Source of the DNA: a virus
Lineage: Duplodnaviria; Heunggongvirae; Uroviricota; Caudoviricetes
Strand: one strand, 5' to 3'
IMG/VR virus record: IMGVR_UViG_3300032167_007646
Length of the DNA: 64,000 nt
Under the pieces are notes generated by a model. That model saw nothing but the letters and a program-made list of their open reading frames with translations. It did not search any database and was not told the DNA's origin. Below, piece by piece: positions 27,240-60,461 of the stretch. Each line of letters begins with the position of its first letter. The first letter of the stretch is position 1. The translations under genes were made by a program, and so were the position numbers.

Positions 27240-27851
27240 TTACTTAAACATTTTTGCAGGAATAATATCAACATTTGCCCTATGAACATACACAAGACCA
27301 TCATCAATATAAATCTTTGTAGTCTTTGGCAAATCAGCAGGAACTTCTGTATAACAGTCATCACCCTGAAACATACAAATAGGTGCTCCTGTCTGACTGA
27401 ATACTACTACTACACTCTTTTTACCAAATTCATTACGATAATTATTGATTACCCTATCTACACCCTGCAGACCTGTTGAAGCATTAGGTGTTGAAAGTGT
27501 ATCAGGTACTTGAAAGTCTGTAATCATATCTACACCCTCTTGTGCAAATACCAATGTATTACCTACATGTTCCCACTCATAACCATCAATAGTAATATCT
27601 ATGTACGAAGAGTCATTACCCATTGAATCAGTTCCACCCTCAAGAGAAATATTATCACCATTAAGGGTTAGAATTTTATTTCCAAAGTTATCATACTCCC
27701 AAACCTGATAGTCATTACCAAAGAGTTCACCCTTCCAACTTGCTATCAAACTCTTAAGTCCTGAACAACCTGTTAGACAGACAAGAACCAAAATAACTGC
27801 CATAACAACAATACACATTTTTGCAATATAACCTACAAATTTCCTATTCAT
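27240..27851 (-). CDS. Lipoprotein, DUF5052-like
   Basis: Lipobox LTGC; YDNFGNK, VVVFSQTGAPICMFQGD, PKTTKIYIDDG. Confidence 0.75.
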   Translation of the reverse strand: MNRKFVGYIAKMCIVVMAVILVLVCLTGCSGLKSLIASWKGELFGNDYQVWEYDNFGNKILTLNGDNISLEGGTDSMGNDSSYIDITIDGYEWEHVGNTLVFAQEGVDMITDFQVPDTLSTPNASTGLQGVDRVINNYRNEFGKKSVVVVFSQTGAPICMFQGDDCYTEVPADLPKTTKIYIDDGLVYVHRANVDIIPAKMFK

Positions 27852-40957: not shown

Positions 40958-42388
40958 TTAAATAATATTTTTCCAATCTACAGCTTCTTCTAACAATGTA
41001 TCAGCAACCATTAAACCCTGTGCTGCTGCCTGTGCTAAACTACGAGTAAATCCTGCACCATCACCAATAGCATAATAACCACTATGACAGTCTAATTCAA
41101 ACTTATCATTTGTTTTAGGTCTTGCACTATAATACTTACATTCAATACCATAAAGTAATGTATCGTAATTTGCTGTTCCTGGTGCTATCTCATCCAAAGC
41201 ATGTAATGTTTCAATAATATTGTCCAACTGTCTCTTTGGTAAACATAAACTTAAATCACCTGCTACTGCACCTTTTAATGATGGTCTTACAGTAGATTTC
41301 TGAAGTCTATGTTCATCAGTCCTTCTACCATTCTCCAAATCACCTAAACGCTGCACAAGCACAGAACCACCACTAATCATGTTGGCCATACTTGCAACAT
41401 GTCTTGCATATTCAATAGGCTTATTAAATGGTTGTGTAAACTTAATAGTAGATAACAAAGCAAAGTTTGTATTTTCTGTCTTTTTATCCTCTGCTTTATA
41501 AGCATGACCATTAACTGTCAATACACCATTTGTATTCTCTATTACAACCTCACCTCTACCATTAAAGCAGAACATTCTAGTACTATCACCATATTTCTTA
41601 CTAATATAATGAATTTTAGGTTCATAGATTTTCTTTTCAAAATCTTCCCAAATAACTGCAGGAAGTTCTACACGCACACCTATATCAACTTGATTATTAG
41701 TTAATTCAATTCCTTGTGCCTGACACCAAGAACTAAAGAAATTACTACCTACTCTACCCACTGCAAATATAACCTTATCTACTAAATCATACCCTTCTAA
41801 ACCATTCTTTGATTTATTAGTAAAATAAATGCACTTTTTATCATCATTTGTTGAATTATCACCAACACAAGTTACATTACAGTTGGTCTTAATCTCTACA
41901 TTATCTAATCTTTCTAAAAACTCAATCATATTTACCATTGTTTCAAAATTAGCATCTGTACCTAAATGCTTACATTGTGATTGAGCCATATGTAAATCAT
42001 GTTGTAAACATAACTTCTTCAATTCATTATTTGGCATATATCTATCATTTGTTGCACCAAAATCTACAAGAATAGAGTCTGCTTCTTCTATATAATTTAA
42101 TACTTCATCTCTATCTCTAATATCTTGCAACCAACCGCCAAATTCAGTAGTTATATTATATTTACCATCACTAAAGGCACCTGCACCTGCCATACCCTCC
42201 ATAATAGCACAATGGTTACACTTAATACACTTATCCACTTTCTTTGCTAAAATAGGACAAGAACGCTTTTTAATAGGATTACCCTTTTCATAAATAATTA
42301 CTTTAATTTTTGGATTGTTAGTAGCCATCTTATAAGCAGCCATTAAACTACTAATTCCACCACCAATAATTCCAACTTTCATCCTCAT
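40958..42388 (-). CDS. FAD-dependent oxidoreductase (COG2509-like)
   Basis: IIGGGISS, YEKG, GMAGAGAFSDGK, AIGDGAGFTRSLAQAA. Confidence 0.9.
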   Translation of the reverse strand: MRMKVGIIGGGISSLMAAYKMATNNPKIKVIIYEKGNPIKKRSCPILAKKVDKCIKCNHCAIMEGMAGAGAFSDGKYNITTEFGGWLQDIRDRDEVLNYIEEADSILVDFGATNDRYMPNNELKKLCLQHDLHMAQSQCKHLGTDANFETMVNMIEFLERLDNVEIKTNCNVTCVGDNSTNDDKKCIYFTNKSKNGLEGYDLVDKVIFAVGRVGSNFFSSWCQAQGIELTNNQVDIGVRVELPAVIWEDFEKKIYEPKIHYISKKYGDSTRMFCFNGRGEVVIENTNGVLTVNGHAYKAEDKKTENTNFALLSTIKFTQPFNKPIEYARHVASMANMISGGSVLVQRLGDLENGRRTDEHRLQKSTVRPSLKGAVAGDLSLCLPKRQLDNIIETLHALDEIAPGTANYDTLLYGIECKYYSARPKTNDKFELDCHSGYYAIGDGAGFTRSLAQAAAQGLMVADTLLEEAVDWKNII

Positions 42389-42392
42389 AACC

Positions 42393-43277
42393 TCACTTCA
42401 AAATTGTAACTTTTTCACCCATTTGTCTTTCAAACGCACTATAGCAAGACATTTTAGGTGGTCTATCAAATACTGCAAAAACTATTTTATCAAAACTATT
42501 TTCAAACACTTCTAAATTTATTAAATCTATCCAATTCTTTGCTATAACATTTGGGTCATTATCAAATACACCACAGCCAAATGCACCTAAAATAAGAGTT
42601 TTACAACCTCTTTCTTTAAACTCTAGCAATATCTTAAACATACGATTTTTCATATCCCAATCAGACTCTTTTACACCATTTCTCATATCTACTCTTTTGA
42701 GAATTGCACCTCTGTTAATTGCTGGACAAGTTATAACATCTGCTAAAACATATTCTACATTTTTATAATCTCCATTCTTAAAGAAAGGTACTTTTGGAGA
42801 AAAAATCATATTATCTGTATAATCAGGTAATGGATGTTTAAAATTCTCTGTATAATACTGATGTGCTTCATCTGTCATTAAAGAATCATATAATGCTGAA
42901 CACAAACACAAACTTTCTTCTTGTGCTTTTGCACCTGTAAGCCAACCACCACCTGGATTTCTTGCAGAAGCAAAATTCAAAACACCAAGATTATCTGTAC
43001 CCTTTAATCTTAATATAGCATCAACTGTCTTTTCTGTTGTTAATTCTATATCTATTTTACTAAAATTGTCTAACTTATTATATAAATTAAATGAGGGATA
43101 TTTTTTATTTTCACTTATAAAACTTGTATTATATTTCATTCTGTCAATAGCACAACTAATATCAATAATTTTTCCATTATATGAATATCTACCACTTTTA
43201 CAAATTTCTAATACAGATTTTGCATTTGGAACTATTGCGAATCTATCTCTATCCATCATAATTACACCACCAATCAA
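42393..43277 (-). CDS. TIGR02452/DUF2263 macrodomain protein, bacterial-type poly(ADP-ribose) glycohydrolase
   Basis: VLNFASARNPGGGWLTGAKAQEESLC (GGG-X7-QEE), IFSPKVPFF, LILGAFGCGVF.N. Confidence 0.9.
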   Translation of the reverse strand: MIGGVIMMDRDRFAIVPNAKSVLEICKSGRYSYNGKIIDISCAIDRMKYNTSFISENKKYPSFNLYNKLDNFSKIDIELTTEKTVDAILRLKGTDNLGVLNFASARNPGGGWLTGAKAQEESLCLCSALYDSLMTDEAHQYYTENFKHPLPDYTDNMIFSPKVPFFKNGDYKNVEYVLADVITCPAINRGAILKRVDMRNGVKESDWDMKNRMFKILLEFKERGCKTLILGAFGCGVFDNDPNVIAKNWIDLINLEVFENSFDKIVFAVFDRPPKMSCYSAFERQMGEKVTILK

Positions 43278-44899
43278 TTTACTTTTTCTAATTTACTATT
43301 CTCAAATTTATAGCAATTATTACAAATTTCTATTATCTTTGGTCTATGAGTTACTATTACAACTGTCTTATCTTTTAATACACTTTTTATTAACTCAACC
43401 ATTTTTTCTTCTGTTTCTACATCTACATTACTTGTAGGTTCATCCAACAAATAAATTTCTTTATCTTTTCTTAATAAACCCCTAATTAAATTTAATCTTT
43501 GTCTTTGACCTGTTGAAACAAAGACACCCCTCTCACCTAATAAAGTATCTAAACCATATTTTTGTCTATCAAACCAATCTTTTAACCCTACCTGTTCTAT
43601 ATAATCTATCAACAATTCATCTGAAATATTTTCACTACCTAAAACTAAATTATCCCTTAAACTCATATCTAATATTTCAGTATCTTGCGCTATAAATACA
43701 CACTCTAAACGCTTATCTGTCTTTTCACCATTTATATACACATTATCTGTCTCTATTTCACCTGATAATATATGAAGTAAAGTAGTTTTACCTTGACCTG
43801 ATTCACCATAAATACAAGTAATATCACCTCTATTTAATTCAAACAAAGGAATATTTATATGTACTAACTTATCTATATTTTCTTTTTCTATTTGATAAGT
43901 AAAATCTAAATTCTCTATTTTTGCACTTACAAAATCATTCTCATCTAATTGATTTCTCTTATTCATATCTGCAACTACTTCATCTAATTTTTTCTTTGCA
44001 CCCAAAAATTCCATATTTTTTTCAAAGGTTACAGAAAAATGTTTTGCAATATGAACCAATTGTAACCCTACAACAGATATTAAAGAGAAAAAGCCAACTG
44101 CATCAAATGAAGTACCTTGTAAAAAATTAAAGTATATTAACAAACAAATAGGTACAAACATAAATATTGACATTTTAAAGAAACAGAAAAAGAATTCTTT
44201 TGTCATACTATATTTTATAGTTCTTCTTCTACAGTCCTCAACTCTTTCTACCATTTTACTATCTATAAAATCAAAACCTTGCATTTTTTGAACTGTACCT
44301 ATATTTATAACTGTATCAGCAACTAACTTATTTCTTAAACCCTCTGCTTCTGTTAATTCACTTGCTCTTTTCTTTACAAATCTACTTCCTATTATTTGAA
44401 AAGTTACAGCCAACAATATTAAAAAAACAAATACTAAACCTAAACTCCAATGAAAATCCCATATTTTATAACTAAAGAATAAAATATAAAACAATGATAA
44501 AGGAAATTGCTGAACAGTCTGTGTATAAGCATTAACTTGACGAGCAATCATTTTTGTTAATAAACCACTTATATATCCTGTATTATATTTTTTAAGAACA
44601 GTAGGCTTTATATTATATATTTTCTTAAAGTATAATGAACTTACACCATTTTCAATACTTGTTAAAGACATATCATTATAACAATCTGCTATAAACTCTA
44701 ATACAGCCCAAATAAAGAAAAATAAAGCATAATGCAAAATTAATATAGGTAAATTTTCTATATCATTTACAACTTTTTCAGTTAATCCTGCTAATATTAA
44801 AACATAATTACAACTAAATATAGACCATAAAGCAGAAAAACAAACTTCTATTATAGGTCTCCATTTTGGTATTCCCTGAAATACTTTCACTATACTCAC
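43274..44899 (-). CDS. ABC exporter, fused permease + ATPase
   Basis: Multiple TMs; Walker A GESGQGKTT, signature VSTGQRQR, Walker B LLDEPT, H-loop VTHR. Confidence 0.92.
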   Translation of the reverse strand: MSIVKVFQGIPKWRPIIEVCFSALWSIFSCNYVLILAGLTEKVVNDIENLPILILHYALFFFIWAVLEFIADCYNDMSLTSIENGVSSLYFKKIYNIKPTVLKKYNTGYISGLLTKMIARQVNAYTQTVQQFPLSLFYILFFSYKIWDFHWSLGLVFVFLILLAVTFQIIGSRFVKKRASELTEAEGLRNKLVADTVINIGTVQKMQGFDFIDSKMVERVEDCRRRTIKYSMTKEFFFCFFKMSIFMFVPICLLIYFNFLQGTSFDAVGFFSLISVVGLQLVHIAKHFSVTFEKNMEFLGAKKKLDEVVADMNKRNQLDENDFVSAKIENLDFTYQIEKENIDKLVHINIPLFELNRGDITCIYGESGQGKTTLLHILSGEIETDNVYINGEKTDKRLECVFIAQDTEILDMSLRDNLVLGSENISDELLIDYIEQVGLKDWFDRQKYGLDTLLGERGVFVSTGQRQRLNLIRGLLRKDKEIYLLDEPTSNVDVETEEKMVELIKSVLKDKTVVIVTHRPKIIEICNNCYKFENSKLEKVN

Positions 44900-45015: not shown

Positions 45016-48000
45016 TTACTCTTTTTTATTTTTTAATATTACGATATATGCCCCAAAAGAACCTAAAATAAGCATTAGGCCTATTAATCTATAATATTTA
45101 TAACCATTACCACCTGTATTTGGTATAGTATCAGATTCTATAGTATCATAATAATTTTCAAAAACTATATATCCATCAACTGTTGTTTCCAAATCAGGAC
45201 TAATAGTTATTACACCATCTAATCCTACAATTACTGTATATACAGTTTCATCCAATTTATAATTTGCTGGTGCTTTTATTTCTTTAAGATAATAAGTCTC
45301 ACCTAAAGTTAATGCAGGAAAATAATATAAACCATTATCATAGTCAATAGAATTTTCTATTAAATCAGTACATTCAAAATCTGAATATAATCCAAACTCT
45401 GCAGCATACAATAATTTATTATTATCCCCATCTACTTTTTGAATTGTAAATGAACCTTTTCTATTTGCTATAAATATATTTGCAACGTGGTCTCTACACT
45501 CAAAATAAGTAATAAATTTACCTGCTAATCTTTCTGCACTATCACCTTTATCTACAGATAAGAAAAAGTATCTATTTTCACCATTTGAAAAATAACCATC
45601 TGGCACACTTACTTCTCTTACTTTTAACAAAGTATTCAAAGGTAATAGTAAACCATCTTCATTATTTAACCAAATAATTTGTCCATTTTCATCAGTTGTT
45701 TTATTACTCAATAAAACCCAAGGGTCTAACATTTGATTATTTATATAATCTAAAACTTCTTCTTTAGAAGATAAAGAGTTTAATGACTCTAATTCTTCAA
45801 CAGTTAAAGTTCTCATTTTATACAATTCAAATTCAGCACCTTGCAATTTTAATTCCAAATCATTAGCGTCATATTTATGAATTATAATTTCTGTTACATT
45901 TGCGTCAACATTACCCTCTGGCTGCACTATTGTTATATCATTAGATATATCATCACCTAAATTCTTAAATCCTGAAATATGTGCATTATTACTTATTGTT
46001 ACAGTTTGACCTGATATACCTATTATTCTTACTGAATAACTTACCCTATAATAATTTTGTACTACATCATTATCAATAATACAAGTCATTGTATGAATAC
46101 CAGGGTCATATAATAATCTAAACAAATCTTCATCCAAAGCATACCAATTTTCTTTATCATCACTATACTCTACAACTACAGAATCAGTTAAAAGATTCAT
46201 ATCTTTTGTCATTTCATCTATAATATGAATTCTATTTATACCCTCTAATAATGGATTTATAGCTTCTACAATAACTTCATATTTAGCAAGATATTTATTT
46301 GTATTATCTGGTACTTGCACCATTTGCTTCTCTAATACAGTATGTTTATACTCATATACTGAATTACTTAAACTTTCTAATTCACCAGTATTTAAATAAG
46401 CATAAGATTCATTACCTAAATTATATCTATATATACCCTCATTATTTAATTTATTTACATCTAAAGCCACTTTATACCTAATTATTGGAGAATAATAACG
46501 ACGACTCCATTCTTCTGTATACCAACAATAATTTGGAGTTATACCATAATAAGGTATTTCTAGTTCAAAACCAAAATCTGACTGCTCTTTTATAGTTGCC
46601 ATAGGAACAGAAACATAAATAGGATTATCAGATTCATCTTGCGTAGAATCCAAAAAATAATTTGCATTCTCATTTATATTTAATAAATTACTCTCCCAAG
46701 CATATTCACTATCTTCAAAAGGATATAAATAATAACTTAAATTTTCTGTATCTTTATTTATATCATCTACCCAATATACTTCTAATGAATCTTCCACATA
46801 TTTTGCATAAGTAATATCTTCAAGAGTATCTATATAAGTAAATCCTTTACCCTCTGAATAATTCATTACATTATGACGTATTTCATAAGTTAAAATTAAC
46901 TCTTTACCATCTGGACTTAATTCCTCATTTATAACATTTTTTCTAAAATACTTATAATTATTTCTACTTTGAACAATTAAAGTACTTTCTCCTCTTAATG
47001 GACCTACCCAACCATTTGTATACCAATCACAAAAATTCTTATGAATCTTAAAATCTTCCTTTGCACCCTCCAAAGTCATAGGAAATTCTAAATGTATATA
47101 CAAATCTTCTGGATATGCTGATAAACCACCATAAGAAAAGTCATCTGCATTATTATCATCCGCTAATGAGAAATATATATTAGGTGAGGGACCACCCTCA
47201 TAATTCTTATTATTTGTTCTATCAAAGAAAAGCAATCTATTTAAGATAGTATCAGTAATATCCTCACCATTTTTTGTTTTTATAGTAAAATCTATACCTA
47301 AATTTCTCGCTTCTTCTTGACTATATAATATATAAGAACCATATAAATCTGGAGTATCCAACTTCAACTTATCTATATAAGTAATATCACCATTTTCCTT
47401 AAATGGTGTATAATCTTCAAAAAAGAAATCTGATAATGGCTTATCCGCAGGTACAAACCAATCAATATACCAAGTTGTATATAAATTACCATGCTCATCT
47501 GATTTAATACCTGTATTACCCTTCTTAATTGTTGAAGGTTTATCTATAACCACAGTTTCATCAATAAATCCATTTTTTTCTACTTTTGAATGATTTACAA
47601 CATATTTACCGTCATTTTGCTCTAATTTTTCACTATACGTTGTAGCATATTCTATCATTACATACAATATACTACATTCCAAATCAGGTAATAAATATTT
47701 AAAAGATTTACCATACCAATAAATTGCTGAACCATCTGTTATAGGAAAATTATCCTCTGTTAAAGAATCAAATTCTTCTTGTGAATTACACTCTATCCAA
47801 GGAATTCTTTTATATACATCATCATATCCTTCCTCTGTACTATAAGCAATTATACTACCACCCTGATATGGAAATACATAATCTATTTCCTCTGATAATG
47901 TATCTGTAATTAAATAACCACCATAATCTATATGTTCATCAGAATACATACTTAGGTTCCAGTCAACATAACCTCTTCCATTTTTATAATTATCCAAATA

Positions 48001-49629
48001 AACTATTTTATCTATTAAATCTATTTCTTCAAAATAAAAATAATCTGAATCACTAAAAGTTTCATCTTCCATAATAATATCAATACTATTATTTATTTGT
48101 ACACTATCTAAATCTTCTAAATGATAATACTCAAAAAAATCAGTCTCTATACATACATTATATTTTAACTCTGCAAATACATCAACAGGAATATTAAAAG
48201 GTTCTTCAAAAATAATCTCTGTTTTTATTTTTTCTTCATCTTTTATATATTCAATAGTAATTTCATTATTTGGTATTACATATTCAGTCAAAGTACCCTG
48301 TTTATCAGTTATTTCAAGTCTTATATCCTCTATAACTAATATATCCTCTAACTCTTTATCTTTATACTCCAAATAAGTTTCAAAAACTTCATAACCATAT
48401 GCAAACTCTAAAATATCTATAATAGATTGTACTTCTATATTTGTATAATTATTTATTCTTACATTATAAGAGATAATATTTTTACCTCTTTCCCAATTTG
48501 GATGACCAAAAGAACCCAAATCTGTTCCTTCTTTTAAAATTTCACCTTTTGATTTATCTAATTTTATAGTTATAATATTACCTTTACCTAAATCAATAGT
48601 AACACTATCACCATTTGTATTATTCCATAAACCAGAAAATTCTAAATTCCATTTTATTACAGACTGTTGAACACCTTCATCATTTAAAACAACATATATT
48701 TTACCATCTGAACTAATATGATAATCACCATAAATTATTCCATCTGAACCTACTAATTGTCCATCAATAGGATTTCCTACAGTGATACCCGCAAATTCCC
48801 AAACATAAAATTTATTTAGCTCCAATAAATTTGAACTTGTAGCAAACTGTAAAGTTAAATCTACATCAAAATCCAAATATACATTCATATCAGAGGGAGC
48901 TTCACCTGCTATTAGGTCATATCTATTATCTTCTGATATAATATAAGCAGCTATCAGAAATTCATCCATACTATGAAAATCTGCAATATCATAAATATTA
49001 CCACCTATTTCTATGGTGTCTGATAAGAAAGAAACATCATTAGACATAAGTTCAACAGAAGTTAATTCATCCAACATCTCTACTGATGTATCAAAAACAA
49101 CTTCTTTTTCTTCTATCTTAATCGCTTCCTCACTTTCATTACTGCTATTTTCTTTTGAAGATACTTCTTCATCTTTCAAAACTTCCTCAGTTTCAATAAT
49201 ATTCTCATTAGAAATTTCAATTTTATCTTCTTCAAATTCTTTTTGATTCTCTATCACTTCTTCAAAAGAATTTTCTAAATTCTCAACTGAATTTTCTAAA
49301 CTTACCTCAACTTCTCCATTATCTGAGGTCAAAGGTTTACTATCTTCCTCACTCATATTCAAAATTGTTACATCTCCATTAGATTCTGAATTTTCACTAT
49401 AATTATTATTTAGTTCTTCTTCTTCATCTAAAATCATTAAAGGATTATGTAAACCCATTTTCTTAAATTCTGCTAAACTCTCCTTATTATCTATAATAGT
49501 ATTTATGACTACTATATCAGAGTCATCTAAAGTATCTAACGCAAAAATAGAAACAGTATTAAAAATATTTAAAGAAAATAATAAGAAAGCAATCAAAAAT
49601 GATATTATTCTATTTATAAATTCTTTCAT
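45016..49629 (-). CDS. Large sortase-anchored adhesin / pilus tip protein
   Basis: Signal peptide, acidic linker, Ig-like repeats, SpaA/Cna-B domains (KLQGAEFELY, YYLKEIKAPANY), IPNTGG sorting signal + TM + basic tail. Confidence 0.88.
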   Translation of the reverse strand: MKEFINRIISFLIAFLLFSLNIFNTVSIFALDTLDDSDIVVINTIIDNKESLAEFKKMGLHNPLMILDEEEELNNNYSENSESNGDVTILNMSEEDSKPLTSDNGEVEVSLENSVENLENSFEEVIENQKEFEEDKIEISNENIIETEEVLKDEEVSSKENSSNESEEAIKIEEKEVVFDTSVEMLDELTSVELMSNDVSFLSDTIEIGGNIYDIADFHSMDEFLIAAYIISEDNRYDLIAGEAPSDMNVYLDFDVDLTLQFATSSNLLELNKFYVWEFAGITVGNPIDGQLVGSDGIIYGDYHISSDGKIYVVLNDEGVQQSVIKWNLEFSGLWNNTNGDSVTIDLGKGNIITIKLDKSKGEILKEGTDLGSFGHPNWERGKNIISYNVRINNYTNIEVQSIIDILEFAYGYEVFETYLEYKDKELEDILVIEDIRLEITDKQGTLTEYVIPNNEITIEYIKDEEKIKTEIIFEEPFNIPVDVFAELKYNVCIETDFFEYYHLEDLDSVQINNSIDIIMEDETFSDSDYFYFEEIDLIDKIVYLDNYKNGRGYVDWNLSMYSDEHIDYGGYLITDTLSEEIDYVFPYQGGSIIAYSTEEGYDDVYKRIPWIECNSQEEFDSLTEDNFPITDGSAIYWYGKSFKYLLPDLECSILYVMIEYATTYSEKLEQNDGKYVVNHSKVEKNGFIDETVVIDKPSTIKKGNTGIKSDEHGNLYTTWYIDWFVPADKPLSDFFFEDYTPFKENGDITYIDKLKLDTPDLYGSYILYSQEEARNLGIDFTIKTKNGEDITDTILNRLLFFDRTNNKNYEGGPSPNIYFSLADDNNADDFSYGGLSAYPEDLYIHLEFPMTLEGAKEDFKIHKNFCDWYTNGWVGPLRGESTLIVQSRNNYKYFRKNVINEELSPDGKELILTYEIRHNVMNYSEGKGFTYIDTLEDITYAKYVEDSLEVYWVDDINKDTENLSYYLYPFEDSEYAWESNLLNINENANYFLDSTQDESDNPIYVSVPMATIKEQSDFGFELEIPYYGITPNYCWYTEEWSRRYYSPIIRYKVALDVNKLNNEGIYRYNLGNESYAYLNTGELESLSNSVYEYKHTVLEKQMVQVPDNTNKYLAKYEVIVEAINPLLEGINRIHIIDEMTKDMNLLTDSVVVEYSDDKENWYALDEDLFRLLYDPGIHTMTCIIDNDVVQNYYRVSYSVRIIGISGQTVTISNNAHISGFKNLGDDISNDITIVQPEGNVDANVTEIIIHKYDANDLELKLQGAEFELYKMRTLTVEELESLNSLSSKEEVLDYINNQMLDPWVLLSNKTTDENGQIIWLNNEDGLLLPLNTLLKVREVSVPDGYFSNGENRYFFLSVDKGDSAERLAGKFITYFECRDHVANIFIANRKGSFTIQKVDGDNNKLLYAAEFGLYSDFECTDLIENSIDYDNGLYYFPALTLGETYYLKEIKAPANYKLDETVYTVIVGLDGVITISPDLETTVDGYIVFENYYDTIESDTIPNTGGNGYKYYRLIGLMLILGSFGAYIVILKNKKE

Positions 49630-49655
49630 ATTAACACCACTTTTCTATATATTAA

Positions 49656-50351
49656 TTACTCTACAACTCTTTCACCACGAACTATTAACCTTTGTGTTCC
49701 TACTCCAGGTGGAGTACAAGTAATCAAACTTACATATTCTTTACCCTCTATTATATTTAAACACTCTAAATCCTCAGGTTCCACTATATCTACATTATCA
49801 ACTTTATATTTATACTTTTCACCTAAAACTGTTATGAAAAAAGAATCACCATTCTTCATTTGGTCTAAATCTGTTAATAATCTAGCAGTAGCTAAAGCAG
49901 TATGCCCACATATAGCCACATGAGTATTTATTTTACCTGTTGGAAAAGAAGTATATTCCATATGTCCTACACCTACTGATAATTCTGGTCCTTCTGTCCC
50001 ATGATATATCGCTAATTCTACATTTATTTTAGGTATCTCTAATACACCCATTACCCCATCATTATGTAAATTTAAGATTGAATTGTAATCATCTAATTCA
50101 CCATTTATAAATTTTGCTTTTGCTCTACGAATATCATTTATCTTAAACAATTCTTCATTGTAAGCGTTTGCTCTATTTATTTCAACATCTTTCTCTGTTA
50201 TAGGCATTTTAGAAACATACTCACCATATTCTTTTATTACAAAACTTTGGTTTCTTCTATTTACAAAATCACTTATTTCAGGATAAAAAGTTACTATTAA
50301 ACCTACTAATACAAAAAGTATACTTATTACACAAATTAGATTTTTTTTCAT
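49656..50351 (-). CDS. srtC: Class C (pilus) sortase
   Basis: MGVLEIPKINV, GHTAL, LITCTP, RLIVRG catalytic H/C/R. Confidence 0.93.
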   Translation of the reverse strand: MKKNLICVISILFVLVGLIVTFYPEISDFVNRRNQSFVIKEYGEYVSKMPITEKDVEINRANAYNEELFKINDIRRAKAKFINGELDDYNSILNLHNDGVMGVLEIPKINVELAIYHGTEGPELSVGVGHMEYTSFPTGKINTHVAICGHTALATARLLTDLDQMKNGDSFFITVLGEKYKYKVDNVDIVEPEDLECLNIIEGKEYVSLITCTPPGVGTQRLIVRGERVVE

Positions 50352-50383
50352 ACTCTTAACCCCTTAACCTAAAAATAAGAAAT

Positions 50384-50412
50384 GAACCCCTCACCCTCTG
50401 AATGAGGGGTTC
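50384..50412 (-). terminator. Hairpin between pilin and sortase genes
   Basis: gaacccctca/tgaggggttc. Confidence 0.7.
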
Positions 50413-50421
50413 TATATAAAA

Positions 50422-52032
50422 TTAGTTATTTACTTTCTTATCTTTTGAACGATAAAGGAAAAAGAGAACACCACAAGCAATTACAAGCATACTTAAGCCA
50501 TATACCTTAAATGGTAATGTACCACTACCACCTGTTTGAGGTAATGAACCACCAACACTATTATTAATAGTTACAACTACATTACCTGGCATTTCAGAAT
50601 CTTCATCTTCAACTGAGAATGATGAAGTTATTGTAGCAAGGTTCTGTCTATGAGTTGTTTCAAACTTATCATCTTTTGCATCACCATCTACTGTATATAC
50701 AGCATTAATATTTGCATTAATATTACCTAATAATGGATTATAACCTGCAGGAGCCGCTGTTTCTTTAATATAATAAGTAGCTGCGTCTAATCCTAAAATT
50801 GTCATAATACCTGTATTATCTGTTGTAATTTCAGTAACAGCATCCACAGTTCCACTTGTTACTACTTCATATACATTATTTGTAGAAGTTTCTTTTAAAT
50901 ATACAGGATTATTATTAGCTGCATCAGAGAATAACTTAAATGAAGCACCTTCCAAATAATCACTTGTATTATTAGCATCTACTTTATGAATACTCATACT
51001 ATAAGAATAAACTATTGTATTATCCCAAGCAGTAGTATTTCTTTCACTTGTATTATAAGGGTCACTGCTATATGTTAACATTGCTCTTGATAAATTACCA
51101 CCTTGACCTGTCTCACCATTTCTTAATACAAATTTTGAAGAATCTACATTAGCAGTATAAACTATATCCACACCTGTAATACCATTTGCAACAGCATTTT
51201 TCATACCACTAAATATAATTGATACAGTATTAGCCGCTGAATCTTCTTCTACAGTATATGTAATACTAGCAGGAGTAGCTACAGTAGCACTTGCTGAATT
51301 CTTAAAAACCACACTTTCTATATCATCAAATACAATACCTTTTTCTAACTCTATATCAATAGTATAATCATATTGTGTATAACCCCTCATATCAGTTATT
51401 GAACCTGTTAATTTATATTCAATAGGCTCATCAAAAGAAATATCAGTAATATCTATATAACTATCTGAATCATCATCATATACTTTCATAAGTAAAGTAG
51501 GAGCACTTGACTTTACTGCTACTGTCTCATTTTTTGTAGCTACTTCTAGAATAGCCAATGAACGAGCCTCATGAACACTTGTTTCTTCTACAATTAAATA
51601 ATAACCTTTACTTTGTACCTGAATACTTTTAGTACCTGAACCTGCAGGGTCAATAGGATTACCTATAGCATAGTTCATAATTTCTGCTGCAAAGGCATCT
51701 ATATCAGCAGCAGTTGTTAAACTTGAAACATACTCAACAGCACTATTTTTACCTTTACCTGCTAAAAACTCTGGAGTAAAATATCCAGCAAAATCAGGGT
51801 TTAATGTATAACCTATTTTTTCATTCTCACCCTCACCTGTTGATGTTGCAGAGAAAATCATATACGCATCATATGTATCTCCATCTGTTCCTGTAAGAGT
51901 AATTGTATAAACTTCAGCAGCAGATACATTTACACAAACAAGAGAAAACAACATCATAATAACTAATAATGAACTAAAAATTCTTTTCATCTTTTTGTCA
52001 GCCTTACACCACATAAGGCTTCCTCCTCTCAA
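50422..52032 (-). CDS. Major (backbone) pilin, SpaH/EbpB-like
   Basis: Signal peptide, VAVKSSAP pilin-like Lys, E-box YYIKETAAPAGYN, LPQTGG + TM + basic tail. Confidence 0.9.
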   Translation of the reverse strand: MRGGSLMWCKADKKMKRIFSSLLVIMMLFSLVCVNVSAAEVYTITLTGTDGDTYDAYMIFSATSTGEGENEKIGYTLNPDFAGYFTPEFLAGKGKNSAVEYVSSLTTAADIDAFAAEIMNYAIGNPIDPAGSGTKSIQVQSKGYYLIVEETSVHEARSLAILEVATKNETVAVKSSAPTLLMKVYDDDSDSYIDITDISFDEPIEYKLTGSITDMRGYTQYDYTIDIELEKGIVFDDIESVVFKNSASATVATPASITYTVEEDSAANTVSIIFSGMKNAVANGITGVDIVYTANVDSSKFVLRNGETGQGGNLSRAMLTYSSDPYNTSERNTTAWDNTIVYSYSMSIHKVDANNTSDYLEGASFKLFSDAANNNPVYLKETSTNNVYEVVTSGTVDAVTEITTDNTGIMTILGLDAATYYIKETAAPAGYNPLLGNINANINAVYTVDGDAKDDKFETTHRQNLATITSSFSVEDEDSEMPGNVVVTINNSVGGSLPQTGGSGTLPFKVYGLSMLVIACGVLFFLYRSKDKKVNN

Positions 52033-54192: not shown

Positions 54193-54217
54193 TTACACCA
54201 CCCCTCTAACTTATAAT

Positions 54218-54242
54218 AGGCGTAGAGATAAACTCTACGCCT
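54218..54242 (-). terminator. Terminator ending the PARP operon
   Basis: aggcgtagag/ctctacgcct. Confidence 0.75.
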
Positions 54243-54251
54243 ATCTAATTT

Positions 54252-57200
54252 TTAACTATTTAAACCTAATTTCTTTACTGCACTATCAAAATATTTCTTT
54301 TGTTTATCTGAACATCTACCTGTCTTTGATATTGTTGTTGAAACACCCTTTTCTATATCACTTAATGTCTTAAAATCAGAATGAGCCACTACTTTACAAG
54401 CAAGTGCCTTTATATCATCACTCTCTTGAACATCTTTCTTATCATCTGCAACCTCATCTGATTTTATAATACCTAATTTAACACAAGCCCTATTTATATA
54501 ATAAAGTTGTTTTTCAGAACAAGTTTTCTTTTGACTTACAGTTTCAGATATACCTTTTTCCAAACTATCTAATGTATTGAAATCAGGATGCTCTTTTAAT
54601 TTTTCAGCCTTTTGAACTCCTGTTAAACCTGATTTATCTCTACCACCCTCGTCCTCTACTAATACATCTTCAATATTTAATTGATTTGGTTTTGGTAAAT
54701 TATTATGTTCTGTTGCTAAATCAATAGCAGTTGCACCATATTTCATTAAGATTTTCCAAATATTTTTAACATCATGTTTTAACAAGTAGTATCTACCTAA
54801 AATATCCGATAACTCAACAATTTCTAATTTAGTTAATTGCATTTTATCCATTTCTCTTAAGTCTTTTAATACCCTATATGTTAATTCAAAATGATTATAA
54901 ATAAGATTATGATTATAACATTCAGCCCTTAAAGCATTTCTATATTTCTTTAATTTTCTACCATCTAATGAACCTACTACATTACAATCTGCCACTATTT
55001 CTTCTACACCATTATTCCAATCATTTCTATCAACACAACTCATTAAAACTTCTAAAAATCTCTCTAATTCTTTTGCTGAATCCTGATATTTTACTTCATT
55101 AAACGCTACAGCCCTTCTTATACCATTATCTGAATATCCACTATAACGACCTGTTCTTCTCTCTGCTGCAACATTCACTTCATGATATTTAATATGTTCA
55201 TCTAAATATCTCTTTACTCTTTCTAATACAGGACCTTTAATAAGTTCATCTTGCTTTCTTTCTTCCTCTTTTGCCTTATATTCCTCTATTAAAGGAATTA
55301 AAGAGGTTTCAATTACCATATAAAAAGCACTAACATTATTATACCACTTTATAGAATTAAAGAATTCACCTGCATCCATATCACTATGATGATACTTAAA
55401 ATCACCACTACCATTTTCATTATATTTTTCATTCAATGCAGTTCTATACTTTTCAACACCTATAAATGAACTGTTTTTCTTTAATTCTTTAAGAACATCT
55501 ATTCCATTCTGATACAATAACCTATAATGTTTTTCAAAAGTTATTTTATCATTCTTCAATCCAATAAATAATTCTTTTAAAGCATTATATAAGTTTTCAA
55601 AATCATCACTGTAGTCAGATATACACTTATTATAAATTTCTTCTGGTATAGCCTGTTTAAGTTCATCTATCACACTATCTGTATGTAATGGACTATCCAT
55701 ATTGCAGAAATTAACATATGCTAATGACGCTGCTGAACCCCTTTCAAATAATCTCTTTTCCTTAAAGATTATAGAAAGAACACCTAATGTAAATGTATCT
55801 AAATCTGGAGTATCTAATAATCTCTTTAAGTCATTCTTCAAGGCACCCAAATTTAAATAATCATACAATTTTTCTTCTTCTGCTTCTTGTTTAGCATTAC
55901 TATAAGTTTCCATTATATCTTTCAACATATCAGCATAAGGAGCCATTATCTTAAATGCTACTAAATCATATAAATTCTTCTGTTTCATATAAGGTTGCAT
56001 TTTCTTATTAGCACGCTTAGCAATCAATAAATCACAATAATCCTCAAAATACTCCCTATTTGTTTTCTCTTGATTTACAACTAAATCATCATAATCTACA
56101 AATAAGTCTGCACGATTATTTGCTTCTTTATAATCCTTTAAGTTAGATACTAACTCGCCAAGAATATTATATAATTCTCCACAATCTTTCTTAAATTTCT
56201 TAAAGTTACCTTTATATTTTTTCAAAATTGCCTTATAAAATTCTTCTCTTGGTGGGTATTCTTGTGTAGCTAAACGCATAACCTTATCCTTATCTAAATT
56301 CATTAAATTATAATGCTGACAAGTCATAATAGTATGTTCTATACCCTTTGAAGTTGTAATTAAAGAACATAAAAATTGTGCTATTTCTTCTTCTGTTTCT
56401 AAATAAGCAACACATTTTAATAACTTCTGAATATTAACTAAAGATTCCTTTATAATATTTCTATATCCACCTTGTATTACCCTAAAATATCTTGAAACAT
56501 TAAAAGGTATAATATCTGCATTAAATTTAGCATCTAAATTATAACGACCTTTTTCTATCTTTGAAGTACCATCTATATCTATACCTATCCTCTTATCTAC
56601 ACCATCTAACATATATTTAGAATAACCCTCATCCATATTCTCTGGTCTTTTAATAACAGGTTTGCTACTCATAAACATTGTCATACAATCATTTATATAA
56701 TTTATAACCCTATTATACCCATACGCATCTTTTGACATTATCTTATCTAATTCTTCCTCAGATATTAAACCTTTATTTACAAGTGTTTTAATATCTTTTA
56801 TAGCCATTAATTTTGTTACCATTGTTTCCCAAGTTAATACAGCCTTATAAAAAGAAACTTGACCATTTATATTCCAATATTTCAATTCAGGGTCTCTCTC
56901 ACTTACTTTCATCTTTTCAGATAAATAACTTGTTATAAATTCTGTAAATGCTGTTTTTAATAAACTACTTTTTGCAAGATTATAAGATATTAACAAATCC
57001 TGTGTATATTTCAAATAGTCAGGATGATGTTGTCTTGTAGCCTTACTTATAATTCTATTTAATCTATCACACAAAGATTTTGGAATAGGTAATCCAACTT
57101 CAACAAACTTCAAAGCATATTTTACATAACCTGCTGTATTCATTTGACTTTTATCTTCTTCTTTAACAGGTATTTTAACAACTTTTCTATCCTCTATTTT

Positions 57201-58034
57201 ATTATATAAATTAGGGTCTAAATCTCCATTTAAACAAGAAATTATATTCTCCTTTATCCACTCCAAAGGTTTTTCTGTTTTAGTTCCATCACCAAATTTT
57301 ATAGGATATAAACCTGTTTCTTTATTTTCAACAAGAGTATCACCATTCCATTTTACTAAAAATGTAGTTAAATCACGCAAACCTTCTACTCCATCTTTTA
57401 ATAAAACTTCACCTGTATGACCTGCCATATATTTATAATACTCTTTCTGCCATTTCTTTTCCATAATAATAGCAATTATCTTTATATCTCTTAATGTTTT
57501 AGACTGAATAGTTCTCATAGAAGCTAAACTTGTCTTATCTATATTGAAAAAGTCTGCTGCACAGTTACAACCAAATCTTAAAACCTCATGAGTTTTCTTA
57601 TTCGCAGCAAAATGAGCATATCTTACAGGGCGAGGACATAAATCACACTTATGTCCATTATTTTTACCCGCATCTGTCATTCCATCATATACCCAATCTT
57701 CCAAATTAAACTTCTTTATACCCATTTCCTCTGTCAATTTCTTTATTTTCTCTTTTATTTTTTGATTTCTCTGTTCTATCTGTAATTCAACAGTACCATT
57801 CAAATCCTTATATAATTCCACAGAAAAACCCCTAAAATATGAGTCTAATAATTGTCTTTGAACAGGATTAAATAAAGCATAAACTTCTTCACTCTCATCA
57901 CCCTTATAACGATTTTCAATAGCATCCATTACAACTCTATCAAATTCCTCTTTTGTTTCCTGCTCTCTCTGAATCTCTTCATCACTTTTAGTTATCTGCA
58001 TATCTTTTGCATCATCTATATACAAACGAGACAT
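54252..58034 (-). CDS. 1260-aa hypothetical protein with N-terminal Zn-binding motif and two C-terminal ~50-aa repeats
   Basis: WVYDG...CDLC...RYAH...FGCNC; repeats HPDFNTLDSLEKGI...CSEKQ..Y...KLG and HSDFKTLSDIEKGV...CSDKQ..Y...KLG. Confidence 0.85.
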   Translation of the reverse strand: MSRLYIDDAKDMQITKSDEEIQREQETKEEFDRVVMDAIENRYKGDESEEVYALFNPVQRQLLDSYFRGFSVELYKDLNGTVELQIEQRNQKIKEKIKKLTEEMGIKKFNLEDWVYDGMTDAGKNNGHKCDLCPRPVRYAHFAANKKTHEVLRFGCNCAADFFNIDKTSLASMRTIQSKTLRDIKIIAIIMEKKWQKEYYKYMAGHTGEVLLKDGVEGLRDLTTFLVKWNGDTLVENKETGLYPIKFGDGTKTEKPLEWIKENIISCLNGDLDPNLYNKIEDRKVVKIPVKEEDKSQMNTAGYVKYALKFVEVGLPIPKSLCDRLNRIISKATRQHHPDYLKYTQDLLISYNLAKSSLLKTAFTEFITSYLSEKMKVSERDPELKYWNINGQVSFYKAVLTWETMVTKLMAIKDIKTLVNKGLISEEELDKIMSKDAYGYNRVINYINDCMTMFMSSKPVIKRPENMDEGYSKYMLDGVDKRIGIDIDGTSKIEKGRYNLDAKFNADIIPFNVSRYFRVIQGGYRNIIKESLVNIQKLLKCVAYLETEEEIAQFLCSLITTSKGIEHTIMTCQHYNLMNLDKDKVMRLATQEYPPREEFYKAILKKYKGNFKKFKKDCGELYNILGELVSNLKDYKEANNRADLFVDYDDLVVNQEKTNREYFEDYCDLLIAKRANKKMQPYMKQKNLYDLVAFKIMAPYADMLKDIMETYSNAKQEAEEEKLYDYLNLGALKNDLKRLLDTPDLDTFTLGVLSIIFKEKRLFERGSAASLAYVNFCNMDSPLHTDSVIDELKQAIPEEIYNKCISDYSDDFENLYNALKELFIGLKNDKITFEKHYRLLYQNGIDVLKELKKNSSFIGVEKYRTALNEKYNENGSGDFKYHHSDMDAGEFFNSIKWYNNVSAFYMVIETSLIPLIEEYKAKEEERKQDELIKGPVLERVKRYLDEHIKYHEVNVAAERRTGRYSGYSDNGIRRAVAFNEVKYQDSAKELERFLEVLMSCVDRNDWNNGVEEIVADCNVVGSLDGRKLKKYRNALRAECYNHNLIYNHFELTYRVLKDLREMDKMQLTKLEIVELSDILGRYYLLKHDVKNIWKILMKYGATAIDLATEHNNLPKPNQLNIEDVLVEDEGGRDKSGLTGVQKAEKLKEHPDFNTLDSLEKGISETVSQKKTCSEKQLYYINRACVKLGIIKSDEVADDKKDVQESDDIKALACKVVAHSDFKTLSDIEKGVSTTISKTGRCSDKQKKYFDSAVKKLGLNS

Positions 58035-58052: not shown

Positions 58053-59600
58053 CTAATTTCCTATCTCTACTTCTACAATATATCTTATTTTATATCTGTT
58101 CTGATTATATACTATAAATTCATTATGAAATAAAGAATAATAATTTGTCTTAAACATTTGATAAAACTTTTCTTTACTTATCTTCAAATCTTTTGTTCCA
58201 CCAATACCCTTTATATCACAACCATACTTAAAAGCATCTTGACCTACACCCATAACACTATTACAACCCGTAGGTGCATGAGCAAAATTACGAGCATGCA
58301 TTTCCATGTGCATTTTACCTAATGCTACATCACATAATAACAAGAAATATCTATTACCTTTATTACGAGTACCACCAAAACGAGAAGTAGAATACTGTAA
58401 TGCTTTTGAATATTCTCCAAAATATACTCCTGGACCAAACATAGCGCCTGTCAACTGAATATTAGGTCCTAAATTTGCAGGAAGTTTAATACTTGTAGAT
58501 AAAATACCCAATAAATTTGCACCTCTAGTTCCATGAAATAATGAAACTACATTACCACAACTTGCATCAAATTGAGGTGCATTTAACTGATTTACCTCAT
58601 AAACATTTACTAATCTTGTTCTTAAATGGTGATTATCTAATTGTTCTTTCTTCATTTTCTCTTTAATTGAATTAAATATACCCTCATCTGTTACAAGAGT
58701 TATTTCACTATTTAACCCTTTATATTTTGTTGTAGTATCAACATCATAATTAGTATTTAATACAGCATTTGATAAACCTACTTCCAATATTTCCAATAAA
58801 TCATATTGTTCCATCAATTTTTCACCTGTATCTAATAACCAATCTGTTGAACCTCTACTTATAACACGAGGTATTGTCATATTATACATATTAGATAATT
58901 CTGCTATATCATTACGAAGTTTCTCAATATTCCTTTTAGCAGTCGCTAATTTATTTTGAACTTCACTTATTTGCTTTAATATTTCTCTACCCCTTAATAT
59001 CATTTTATGATTTATCATACCAAGAGGGTTTTCTGAACTTTGGAATTGTTCAGGATTTATAGACCTTTTAATAGTCTGATTAGCCTCAGCATAAATGGTT
59101 TCCACCAATTTTGATACTTTTGGAGAAATAGCTTTAATTTCTGTTTTCTTTTCTGGTTTTGTTGCCTTTAATTCCTCTGCTAACTCCTTATTTTTATCAA
59201 TTATACCCTTTGCAACATTACTATCTAAAACATTTTTCTCTGTTACAAAACCTTTTGCTGCTGCACTACAGTTAGGATAAATAGAAATGACTTCAACTTC
59301 TTGATAACCCTCTTTTAACCTTTTCTTACATTCATCCAAATAAATATTTTTTACCATTATCTCACTTGCAAATCTTCTAATTCTTGCCTGTATATCATCT
59401 GAACCTAAACGACCACTAGTTATTGCTAAATAACACATTTTTCCATCTTTTAGAATTTCTATATTACAAAATTTATTACTTACTTTATTAGTCTTTATAT
59501 CACCTTTTGAATAAATATAAGATGCTATTTTCATACATTCTACATTTACATTTGTATAAACTTTATCAATATCACCAATTATTTTTATATTATCAGCCAT
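58053..59600 (-). CDS. Poly(ADP-ribose) polymerase (WGR-like + regulatory + catalytic domains)
   Basis: SNKFC.IE...SGRLG (WGR-like); MYNMTIPR (regulatory); FHGTRG, GAMFGPGVYF, ALQYS, LLLCDVALGK, HNEFIVY (H-Y-E triad). Confidence 0.93.
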   Translation of the reverse strand: MADNIKIIGDIDKVYTNVNVECMKIASYIYSKGDIKTNKVSNKFCNIEILKDGKMCYLAITSGRLGSDDIQARIRRFASEIMVKNIYLDECKKRLKEGYQEVEVISIYPNCSAAAKGFVTEKNVLDSNVAKGIIDKNKELAEELKATKPEKKTEIKAISPKVSKLVETIYAEANQTIKRSINPEQFQSSENPLGMINHKMILRGREILKQISEVQNKLATAKRNIEKLRNDIAELSNMYNMTIPRVISRGSTDWLLDTGEKLMEQYDLLEILEVGLSNAVLNTNYDVDTTTKYKGLNSEITLVTDEGIFNSIKEKMKKEQLDNHHLRTRLVNVYEVNQLNAPQFDASCGNVVSLFHGTRGANLLGILSTSIKLPANLGPNIQLTGAMFGPGVYFGEYSKALQYSTSRFGGTRNKGNRYFLLLCDVALGKMHMEMHARNFAHAPTGCNSVMGVGQDAFKYGCDIKGIGGTKDLKISKEKFYQMFKTNYYSLFHNEFIVYNQNRYKIRYIVEVEIGN

Positions 59601-59621: not shown

Positions 59622-60014
59622 TTATACACCATATTCTCTTTTAATACGATTTTCTAAACTTTCTAAATAATTTGTTACACAACCTAATTGAAAATTTCTT
59701 GAAGTCCTATCCCTTCTACGAGCCGCATTCTCCCATAATCTCTTATGACCTAATACAGAACTTATATCTGAATGGAATAAACCATTTGTTGAAGTATAAT
59801 CTATAATTTCTTTATCAGTTCTACCATTAAATTCTATACCATTACTACTTAATATTGCTTTACACAAATTTAATAAAGATAAATCCATATTTTTAACTAT
59901 TTCATCACAATCTGAATTACCCCACCAATAAGGAGAATATCTATAACTTTCTACAAATATTCTCTGTTGTTTTGCATGTTCTATATAACTTTTCGCTGAC
60001 ATCATAATTATCAC
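59622..60014 (-). CDS. Hypothetical protein, paralog family D
   Basis: YIEHAKQQRIFVES...LLNLCK...LWENAARR. Confidence 0.78.
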   Translation of the reverse strand: MIIMMSAKSYIEHAKQQRIFVESYRYSPYWWGNSDCDEIVKNMDLSLLNLCKAILSSNGIEFNGRTDKEIIDYTSTNGLFHSDISSVLGHKRLWENAARRRDRTSRNFQLGCVTNYLESLENRIKREYGV

Positions 60015-60080: not shown

Positions 60081-60461
60081 TTATATTAATCTACATTCTT
60101 TTACTACTAATTTTTCAAAATTCTCCAACGCTTCAACAACATTCTCTAAATAATAATATCTACTTGTTTTACGTCTTGTTGCACCCTCCCATAAGTCTAT
60201 TTCACTTTTAACTCTATGCACAAATAGAGAATAATTCTGTCTTGAACCTACAAAAGTTATAATAGATTCTTCTGGCTCTTCTTGAAAAGGAATATTATTA
60301 TAAACCAACAAAATTTTACACAAATTTAAAAGGGCTAATTTCATATTCCTTTTAATATCATTAAATTCAGAACTACCTATATAATAAAAATCATCTCTAT
60401 GACTTTTTACAAATTCTTTTTGTTTTTGATAATGTTCAAAATATGTATTTAATGATAACAT
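60081..60461 (-). CDS. Hypothetical protein, paralog family D
   Basis: YFEHYQKQKEFVKS...LLNLCK...LWEGATRR. Confidence 0.78.
   Translation of the reverse strand: MLSLNTYFEHYQKQKEFVKSHRDDFYYIGSSEFNDIKRNMKLALLNLCKILLVYNNIPFQEEPEESIITFVGSRQNYSLFVHRVKSEIDLWEGATRRKTSRYYYLENVVEALENFEKLVVKECRLI

Follow-up and report, generated by a model that had tools for sequence, protein, structure and literature searches.

The 64,000-nucleotide stretch analyzed here (the window; IMG/VR virus record IMGVR_UViG_3300032167_007646) carries a gene for a poly(ADP-ribose) polymerase (PARP), followed immediately by a gene for a 1260-residue protein referred to below as the partner. A prior interpretation made from the letters alone (the sequence-only reading) had described the PARP as a complete, eukaryote-like enzyme on a phage-like element, activated by DNA and possibly giving branched poly(ADP-ribose) (PAR). 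Computational follow-up of the gene, its neighbors and its relatives led to a somewhat different picture, in which a predicted catalytically competent enzyme of bacterial type, having a WGR domain, a helical regulatory domain and an ADP-ribosyltransferase (ART) domain with the H-Y-E triad, is strictly paired with the partner. The PARP gene and its parts are as follows.

58053..59600, minus strand: PARP gene (P0001), 515 amino acids; N-terminal extension, degenerate WGR domain, helical regulatory domain and H-Y-E ART domain
59286..59489, minus strand: WGR domain, residues 38-105; S-G-R-L-G replaces W/Y-G-R-x-G, with blocks NKFxN, xGRxG and KxGY present
58731..59126, minus strand: helical regulatory domain (HD, or PARP_reg), residues ~159-290; PF02877 at 45.3 bits, model helices at 160-282
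58062..58703, minus strand: ART catalytic domain, residues ~300-513; triad H356, Y393, E494, together with K399, Y403, A400 and H492
58128..58247, minus strand: long acceptor loop, residues 452-491; 42 residues from G451 to E494, aligning with the PARP2 loop

Domains and active site of the PARP

The open reading frame (ORF) was found at exactly 58053-59600 on the minus strand, where it starts with ATG behind a GAGGG-type ribosome-binding site, and its translation of 515 residues holds the segments to which the sequence-only reading had pointed (FHGT, GAMFGPGVYF, ALQYS, CDVALGK, SLFHNEFIVY, NKFCNIE...SGRLG and MYNMTIPR). The agreement of these motifs with PARP is far above chance. Pfam profiles matched the PARP catalytic domain (PF00644) at residues 309-512 (95.3 bits, E 4.5e-27, cut-off 26.7, spanning profile positions 4-198 of 199), and the regulatory domain (PF02877) at residues 159-273 (45.3 bits, E 1.2e-11, cut-off 26.8). 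Both scores stand well over the curated cut-offs, and the MYNMTIPR segment, taken earlier for a regulatory helix, lies inside the PARP_reg match. Searching the PDB with phmmer matched PARP2, PARP4 and PARP1 at E ~1e-18 to 1e-16. An AlphaFold2 model was built from 34 homologues with a mean predicted local distance difference test score (pLDDT) of 78.6; superposition of its ART domain on that of human PARP1 gave Z 26.4 and a root-mean-square deviation (rmsd) of 2.4 A over 224 of 241 residues at 24% identity, so that the predicted fold agrees. The top Foldseek matches of the model were WGR-HD-ART chains of PARP1 and PARP2 on DNA breaks (E ~1e-23). Alignment to WGR-containing chains extended over model residues 5-515, with template modeling (TM) scores of 0.35-0.42 and rmsd above 20 A, values that arise because the domain orientations differ. 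The three-domain layout proposed earlier is thus borne out by Pfam, profile comparison and fold.

Across the family of close PARP relatives, conservation is highest in the ART domain (mean pairwise identity 0.72-0.76), and the linker stands at 0.23. The WGR domain (0.50), the N-terminal extension and the HD are each ~0.5 identical, and therefore appear to be under constraint. A further block, I-Y-P-N-C-S-x-A-A-K-x-F-V (residues 106-125, 59226-59285), sits between the WGR and helical domains; C111, S112 and A115 do not vary, mean identity over the block is 0.59, and the block is specific to the family, being absent from relatives of 450 residues.

Alignment with PARP2 by phmmer assigns the H-Y-E triad to H356, Y393 and E494, and sets H492, two residues ahead of the catalytic Glu, against the equivalent of PARP1 Tyr986, as had been read by eye. 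None of H356, G357, Y393, K399, Y403 and E494 varies among the 34 sequences compared (27 family members and 7 distant relatives). The literature also agrees that PARP1 Y986H makes hyper-branched PAR, the variant showing strong automodification and ~16-fold more branching in vitro (PMC7544232). What does not hold is that His492 is a special substitution. His occupies this position in 24 of 27 family members (Tyr in 2, Asn in 1) and in 5 of 7 distant relatives, and 159 other prokaryotic or viral PARP loci carry Asn in 85 cases, His in 23 and Tyr in 12; Tyr is the unusual state outside eukaryotes. As the family consensus, H492 is therefore not readable as a Y986H-like change. Like the PARP1 variant, the enzyme has a His at this site, two positions ahead of the catalytic Glu, but here the His is native to a very different active-site background, and an effect on branching is hypothetical.

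From its sequence, the acceptor loop of 42 residues appears to be the one clearly PARP1/2-like trait of the enzyme. It measures 41-47 residues in 27 of 27 family members, 9 in the closest relatives of ~450 residues, and fewer than 40 in 128 other prokaryotic and viral PARPs. In PARP1 this loop carries G972 and Y986, two residues that control how long and how branched the chains become (PMC7544232).

The N-terminal WGR domain is degenerate in its diagnostic residues. On the full-length PARP no WGR domain was called at Pfam's own threshold, and a profile of the family N-termini searched against the PDB returned the PARP3 WGR (2eoc) first, at E 0.055. Comparison by hhalign with a profile of bacterial relatives, made from the N-termini of ~450-residue proteins whose WGR domains score 54-60 bits in Pfam, aligned residues 38-105 at 97% probability and E 4.8e-11, and the domain is therefore a true, though divergent, WGR homologue. 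G63-R64 and three conserved blocks are retained. The Trp/Tyr-Gly-Arg signature is not, this copy reading S-G-R, so that the WGR-like domain of the sequence-only reading stands as a matter of homology and falls short in signature, with no aromatic residue and a sub-threshold Pfam score. In PARP1, the Trp and Arg of the WGR touch the DNA 5' end and pass the signal to the helical domain.

The partner protein and the PARG

54252..58034, minus strand: partner gene, orphan, 1260 amino acids; starts 18 nt after the PARP stop, with its own AGGAG ribosome-binding site
57534..57716, minus strand: Cys/His module of the partner, residues ~107-167; C130, C133, H141, C156 and C158 invariant in the PARP-linked subfamily
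54216..54244, no strand assigned: hairpin, a 12-bp GC-rich palindrome directly after the partner stop, with no clear U-tract on the coding strand
59622..60014, minus strand: upstream gene, 130 amino acids, 21 nt before the PARP start; paralogue at 60081-60461

In all five loci read (L001, L002, L163, L165 and L166) the partner gene lies directly 3' of the PARP gene. The L001 pair is identical to that of the window; identities of PARP and partner are ~75% and 54% in L163, a 395-kb relative, 55% and 37% in L165 and L166, and 50% and 34% in L002. Of 35 clusters of partner homologues, 11 have a longest contig of the same size as that of a PARP cluster. This strict pairing of a PARP with an orphan 1260-residue protein is new. 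No terminator was found between the two genes, which, judged from the layout, are probably co-transcribed, as the 130-residue upstream gene probably is with the PARP. A promoter scan returned 47 sites where 54 were expected by chance and is thus uninformative in such AT-rich DNA, leaving the hairpin as the only useful signal.

The partner comprises a conserved N-terminal domain, a helical middle and two C-terminal repeats of ~55 residues. It had no match in Pfam, PHROG, PADLOC, the PDB or a tblastn search of phages; PDB profile searches with its N-terminal, Cys/His and C-terminal parts returned nothing, and an IMG/VR scan gave no close relative. The N-terminal 480 residues were modeled at pLDDT 78.5, with a weak best fold match of Z 5.2. 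A TnsD-like match in AFDB (E 4.8e-4) was likewise weak at TM 0.16-0.18, and ESM Atlas feature matches, at or below 0.88, are leads only. The Cys/His module gave fold matches to C1 domains (Z 4.1-4.8) and to Zn1/Zn2 of PARP1 (Z 3.7-3.9), against a noise guide of ~8. Identification of the module as a PARP-type zinc finger (zf-PARP) was rejected, as 19 orthologue segments gave no Pfam match even at E 10 and no PDB profile match was obtained; the wider family to which this part of the protein belongs keeps only C130 and C158.

That wider, unnamed family corresponds to partner residues ~20-215 and numbers 282 representative clusters at E <=1e-3 in an exhaustive hidden Markov model (HMM) search. Its members are mostly 550-900 residues long, none of 10 tested has a Pfam domain, and the core reads D-W-x-Y-x-G-x-x-D-x-G ... 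C-x-L-G-H-x-L-R-Y ... F-G-x-x-C-x-x-D-F-F. In IMG/VR the domain occurs on a single contig, which has no PARP. As a general companion of PARPs the domain was rejected, with no occurrence within 10 kb at 160 other PARP loci. The only link between the PARP and partner families seen outside the 515-residue PARP family is on L169, an 82-kb phage-like contig, where a 687-residue distant partner homologue lies ~5 kb from a 468-residue WGR-PARP_reg-PARP gene (L169:1-979, L169:6001-8064); this contig also carries a DNA polymerase A fragment, a 5'-3' exonuclease and many small ORFs.

Further genes with a certain or candidate connection to ADP-ribose, and the neighbor of one of them, are these.

42393..43277, minus strand: microbial-type poly(ADP-ribose) glycohydrolase (PARG), 294 amino acids; PF10021 at 129.1 bits (cut-off 23.5), signature GGG-X7-QEE
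40958..42388, minus strand: FAD-dependent protein, directly downstream of the PARG; pair kept in L163, protein also in L165 and L166
2054..2575, minus strand: NUDIX hydrolase; PF00293 at 47 bits, candidate ADP-ribose-processing enzyme

The PARG (PF10021, or DUF2263) is identified by both its profile and the GGG-X6-8-QEE signature of the group. It lies ~15 kb from the PARP, on the same strand, within a block syntenic with L163, in which the pair of PARG and FAD-dependent protein follows the PARP by 5.5 kb. PARG homologues are also found in Bacillus phage G and the Lak megaphages. As a general neighbor of PARPs, PARG was rejected: it was found at none of 160 other loci (tblastn, 10 kb), and by HMM the microbial type is absent from four IMG/VR jumbo-phage records that have WGR-PARPs. 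The NUDIX hydrolase can be connected to the PARP system only conjecturally.

Related enzymes, proposed mechanism and alternatives

A word-indexed search of 5.8 billion proteins gave ~40 PARP clusters of 509-527 residues and 44-96% identity, all metagenomic and some on contigs of 395 kb and 652 kb. The exact protein is present on 23 contigs, and metagenome runs from 14 studies of animal faeces and gut, sheep among them, contain the gene. Four of these runs are marked as possible sources, and none of the runs listed was an RNA run. No close relative was found in 185,579 species-representative genomes, or in IMG/VR, where single-protein and close-family scans gave a best match of at most 29%. The next relatives are WGR-HD-ART proteins of ~450 residues at 30-34% identity, and after these the PARPs of an Aneurinibacillus megaplasmid and a Bacillus sp. 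(31-32%). Since these prokaryotic and element-borne enzymes score 170-221 bits, versus 69 bits for PARP2, the description of the enzyme as eukaryote-like was overstated.

The best characterized enzymes of this layout are CdPARP of Clostridioides difficile CD160 and HaPARP of Herpetosiphon aurantiacus, which have the same WGR-PARP_reg-PARP_cat order, the H-Y-E triad, and a DUF2263/microbial PARG in the same organism. Given NAD+ and activated DNA, both automodify with PAR; PARP inhibitors block them, and DUF2263 PARGs from the same organisms undo the modification (PMC5966428, PMC8120803). They are the only two bacterial PARPs assayed, and no physiological role, target, activator or cofactor has been assigned to bacterial PARPs (PMC8120803). 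CdPARP and HaPARP themselves were compared by description, and sequence differences were drawn from the ~450-residue relatives of that layout (P0042-P0048), which with the two Bacillales PARPs are the nearest outside the family (30-34%). Relative to these, the family described here is ~60 residues longer, with a 37-residue N-terminal extension and the IYPNCS-type block, has a WGR without the aromatic residue, and has an acceptor loop of 42 residues rather than the 9 of its nearest relatives. Only here does a 1260-residue partner adjoin the PARP; in its place the nearest ~450-residue and Bacillales relatives have a DUF3846 gene. In the Aneurinibacillus megaplasmid (L003:13107-13967) and Bacillus sp. 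M6-12 (L004:12545-13387) each PARP is followed by a DUF3846 protein, in L003 with an IS605 OrfB insertion between the two genes and a UvrD-type helicase upstream, and this constitutes a different conserved PARP neighborhood.

Human PARP1 and PARP2 have the same fold (ART Z 26.4) and H-Y-E triad as the enzyme, and their acceptor loop is about as long. They differ in that identity is only ~19-25%, and that the protein described here has no zinc fingers or BRCT domain, has His for the Tyr before the catalytic Glu, has Ala for the nicotinamide-anchoring Ser, and has a degenerate WGR signature. Phage records contain distant PARPs alone (24-44% identity, partial coverage), some of them annotated as poly(ADP-ribose) polymerase. 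Those of jumbo phages (Klebsiella phage vB_KpM_FBKp34, Xanthomonas phages XacN1 and Xoo-sp13, and Stenotrophomonas phages) and of megaplasmids resemble the present case in residing on very large replicons, but are at most 31% identical over partial coverage. The phage matches lie in genomes of 137-595 kb, and IMG/VR relatives are mostly on contigs above 100 kb. Twenty plasmid records with a PARP homologue, from Pseudomonas, Vibrio, Variovorax, Paenibacillus, Bacillus and others, are all very large and predicted non-mobilizable, the 12 listed spanning 360 kb to 1.17 Mb. From the giant plasmids and jumbo-phage matches, WGR-PARPs look like typical cargo of giant replicons.

With bacterial WGR-PARP_reg-PARP_cat enzymes and their PARGs already characterized, the PARP described here adds a divergent member to a known enzyme group. 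New are the strict two-gene module, the acceptor loop of PARP1/2 length, the degraded WGR signature, and a giant gut replicon having both writer and eraser. The reading favoured here, and considered fairly probable as a whole, is that of a competent PARP which forms a two-gene module with the partner, is reversed by PARG, and is carried on a giant gut element. Most likely the PARP would use NAD+ to build PAR on itself and on the partner or target macromolecules. The helical domain would hold the enzyme off until an activating signal arrives, and the microbial PARG of the same element would remove the polymer. PARP and the orphan protein would act together, the partner most likely being a targeting or activating subunit of the PARP, or its main substrate. 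As the residues with which a WGR canonically senses DNA are degraded in this family, the enzyme may need the partner for its activation, and not direct contact between WGR and DNA breaks alone. The role would potentially be reversible PAR signaling in the DNA transactions of the replicon, or in conflict with the host and rival elements.

Several findings weigh against this reading. The N-terminus taken alone scores 20.7 bits against PF05406 (residues 38-102), under the cut-off of 22; across the family, Ser or Thr replaces the WGR aromatic residue in 26 of 27 members and 16 of 27 retain the Arg, with only the Gly invariant. Judged from these residues, DNA-dependent activation may be altered or lost. 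In the nicotinamide pocket, G357 (PARP1 G863) and Y403 (Y907) are invariant, and the anchoring Ser, equivalent by motif to PARP1 S904, is replaced by Ala400, so that NAD+ binding may be weaker in this copy; a Ser is kept there by 17 of 27 family members and by 131 of 159 other PARPs. No PARG lies within 10 kb of the PARP in L002, L165 or L166. The partner is without recognizable fold or family, and its role is therefore a guess.

Physical association of the two proteins was evaluated by complex prediction with the N-terminal 480 residues of the partner. The interface score (ipSAE) was 0.37 in three runs, compared with 0.00 for the best of three controls; the runs agreed in at least 71% of contacts, partner pLDDT was at least 73, and the verdict of the tool was 'weak support', a grade more often wrong than right unless the pairing is likely beforehand. 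Among 80 solved complexes 58 scored at or above the mark, as did 2 of 110 mismatched pairs, and scores over the mark yet at or below 0.60 were those of 7 of the 80 solved complexes and of both passing mismatches. Combined with the strong genomic prior, this score lends modest support to predicted binding of PARP and partner.

The account that extends the sequence-only reading, which did not mention the partner gene, is instead one of a self-sufficient DNA-break sensor resembling PARP2 and PARP3, in which the WGR binds nicks or ends and unfolds the HD, His492 leads to short, hyper-branched PAR, and the neighboring gene is irrelevant. WGR, HD and ART are indeed all there, G63-R64 and the three WGR blocks are kept, HaPARP and CdPARP were active when assayed with activated DNA (PMC5966428), PARP1 Y986H gives ~16-fold more branching (PMC7544232), and the acceptor loop is PARP1/2-like. 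As a sensor, however, the domain is present without the residues expected of one: with the signature degraded as described (aromatic lost in 26 of 27, Arg kept in 16 of 27), direct DNA-break sensing cannot be assumed. His or Asn being usual in prokaryotic and viral PARPs, the phenotype of a mutant in a PARP1 background is not simply transferable, and the strict linkage of PARP and partner is left without explanation; this account is considered unlikely. A more elaborate form of the favoured reading, in which a split PAR machine of giant gut elements uses the Cys/His module and helical domains of the partner to sense or target in trans, as the zinc fingers and intact WGR of PARP1 do, His492 and the PARP1-length loop would yield highly branched PAR, PARG would reset the system, and DNA ends of the element or host defence proteins would be acted upon, is regarded as distinctly unlikely in that full detail.

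PARP activity consumes NAD+, and NAD+ depletion is a common outcome of bacterial immunity. The PARP could on that basis be an NAD+-depleting effector, an abortive-infection or exclusion weapon which foreign DNA or damage would set off and which would arrest the cell or a competing phage. Genes of an NAD+ and ADP-ribose network (a nucleotidyltransferase, KptA/Tpt1 and a YAcAr SLOG domain) as well as Apyc1-like genes do lie near the PARP in relatives. However, PARP, partner and PARG match no PADLOC-DB 2.0 defence model (E <=0.01), literature tying WGR-PARPs to phage defence or counter-defence was not found, the neighboring genes resemble counter-defence more than defence, and a PARG on the same element suits reversible signaling better than terminal exhaustion of NAD+, making such an effector very improbable. 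An equally low probability is given to the enzyme not being a polymerase at all, whether it mono-ADP-ribosylates a specific target (protein, or DNA or RNA ends) or is catalytically weakened in this copy. Ala400 would fit this, and PARP3 and PARP4 share fold and triad yet are classed as mono-transferases, the PDB labeling PARP4 a 'protein mono-ADP-ribosyltransferase'. Set against it are the H-Y-E triad with its invariant Glu, the keeping of a PAR-specific PARG-type eraser on the element, the length of the acceptor loop (conserved in 27 of 27, and in PARP1 the site of G972 and Y986), and the apparent tolerance of Ser/Ala variation among otherwise conserved orthologues.

Poly(ADP-ribosyl)ation is central to eukaryotic DNA-damage signaling, but very little is known of what it does in prokaryotes and their mobile elements. 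The family offers a compact, tractable system, with writer, eraser and a co-inherited candidate regulator or substrate on one replicon, and with natural variation at positions studied in PARP1 (His/Tyr/Asn at the Y986 equivalent, Ser/Ala at the S904 equivalent, and the WGR Arg). Were the partner to control or receive PAR, it would be the first defined PARP accessory factor outside eukaryotes and would give a function to part of the unnamed 282-cluster family; were the enzyme to behave like CdPARP, the result would be a routine extension of bacterial PARPs to giant gut elements.

The carrying element

The window has a GC content of 24-31%, all substantial genes on one strand, and many orphan ORFs. 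Scans for tRNA and Rfam families gave no matches, megablast of 24 kb against phage records gave no match, and no structural, replication or conjugation genes, or phage hallmarks, were seen in the window. A 222-kb relative is not in IMG/VR, though its JGI sample contributes other contigs to that database. The description as a phage-like element is therefore unproven, there being no hallmark gene, no member of the PARP family among the IMG/VR or phage records searched, and instead a sortase pilus and host-like genes. The gene repertoire of the element and its relatives does fit that described for large phages (PMC9503650). The element is interpreted as a giant, low-GC, extrachromosomal replicon of a Gram-positive animal-gut bacterium, with a huge phage and a megaplasmid-like element about equally likely and a small chance of a chromosomal island.

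Host-like genes occur singly, outside their usual operons, over 2689-35100 on the minus strand, and at least two orphan DNA methyltransferases lie among them.

2689-3690, minus strand: GalE-like epimerase
3712-5964, minus strand: pyruvate formate-lyase (PFL)
6846-7934, minus strand: RtcB
19138-21261, minus strand: CdaA-YbbR fusion
22608-23273, minus strand: MgtC
27240-27851, minus strand: DUF5052
33772-35100, minus strand: TrkH
12310-13080 and 26194-27123, minus strand: two N6/N4 DNA methyltransferases

A tblastn search of phages with the PFL was uninformative, returning short fragments and prophage-adjacent host genes. Compared with L163, the window has an insertion of ~11 kb between the PARP-partner pair and the PARG (45016-52032 and 43274-44899, both minus strand), and is otherwise collinear. 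Encoded in it are a backbone pilin (SpaA/GramPos_pilinBB), a sortase, a 1537-residue adhesin with SpaA domains, and an ABC-type ATPase with a match to the PADLOC model mad3 (84.7 bits). The presence of a sortase/LPXTG pilus points to a Gram-positive host, and such a pilus would be uncommon in a phage.

Within 10 kb upstream of the PARP in relatives (L163:352-1419, L165:793-2034, L165:21080-21581) are Apyc1-like (anti-Pycsar) metallo-beta-lactamase genes, Thg1 and KptA/Tpt1 (PTS_2-RNA). The same region also holds a CTP_transf_like nucleotidyltransferase, PNP_UDP_1, a nucleoside deoxyribosyltransferase and YAcAr, and is a counter-defence and nucleotide-repair island.

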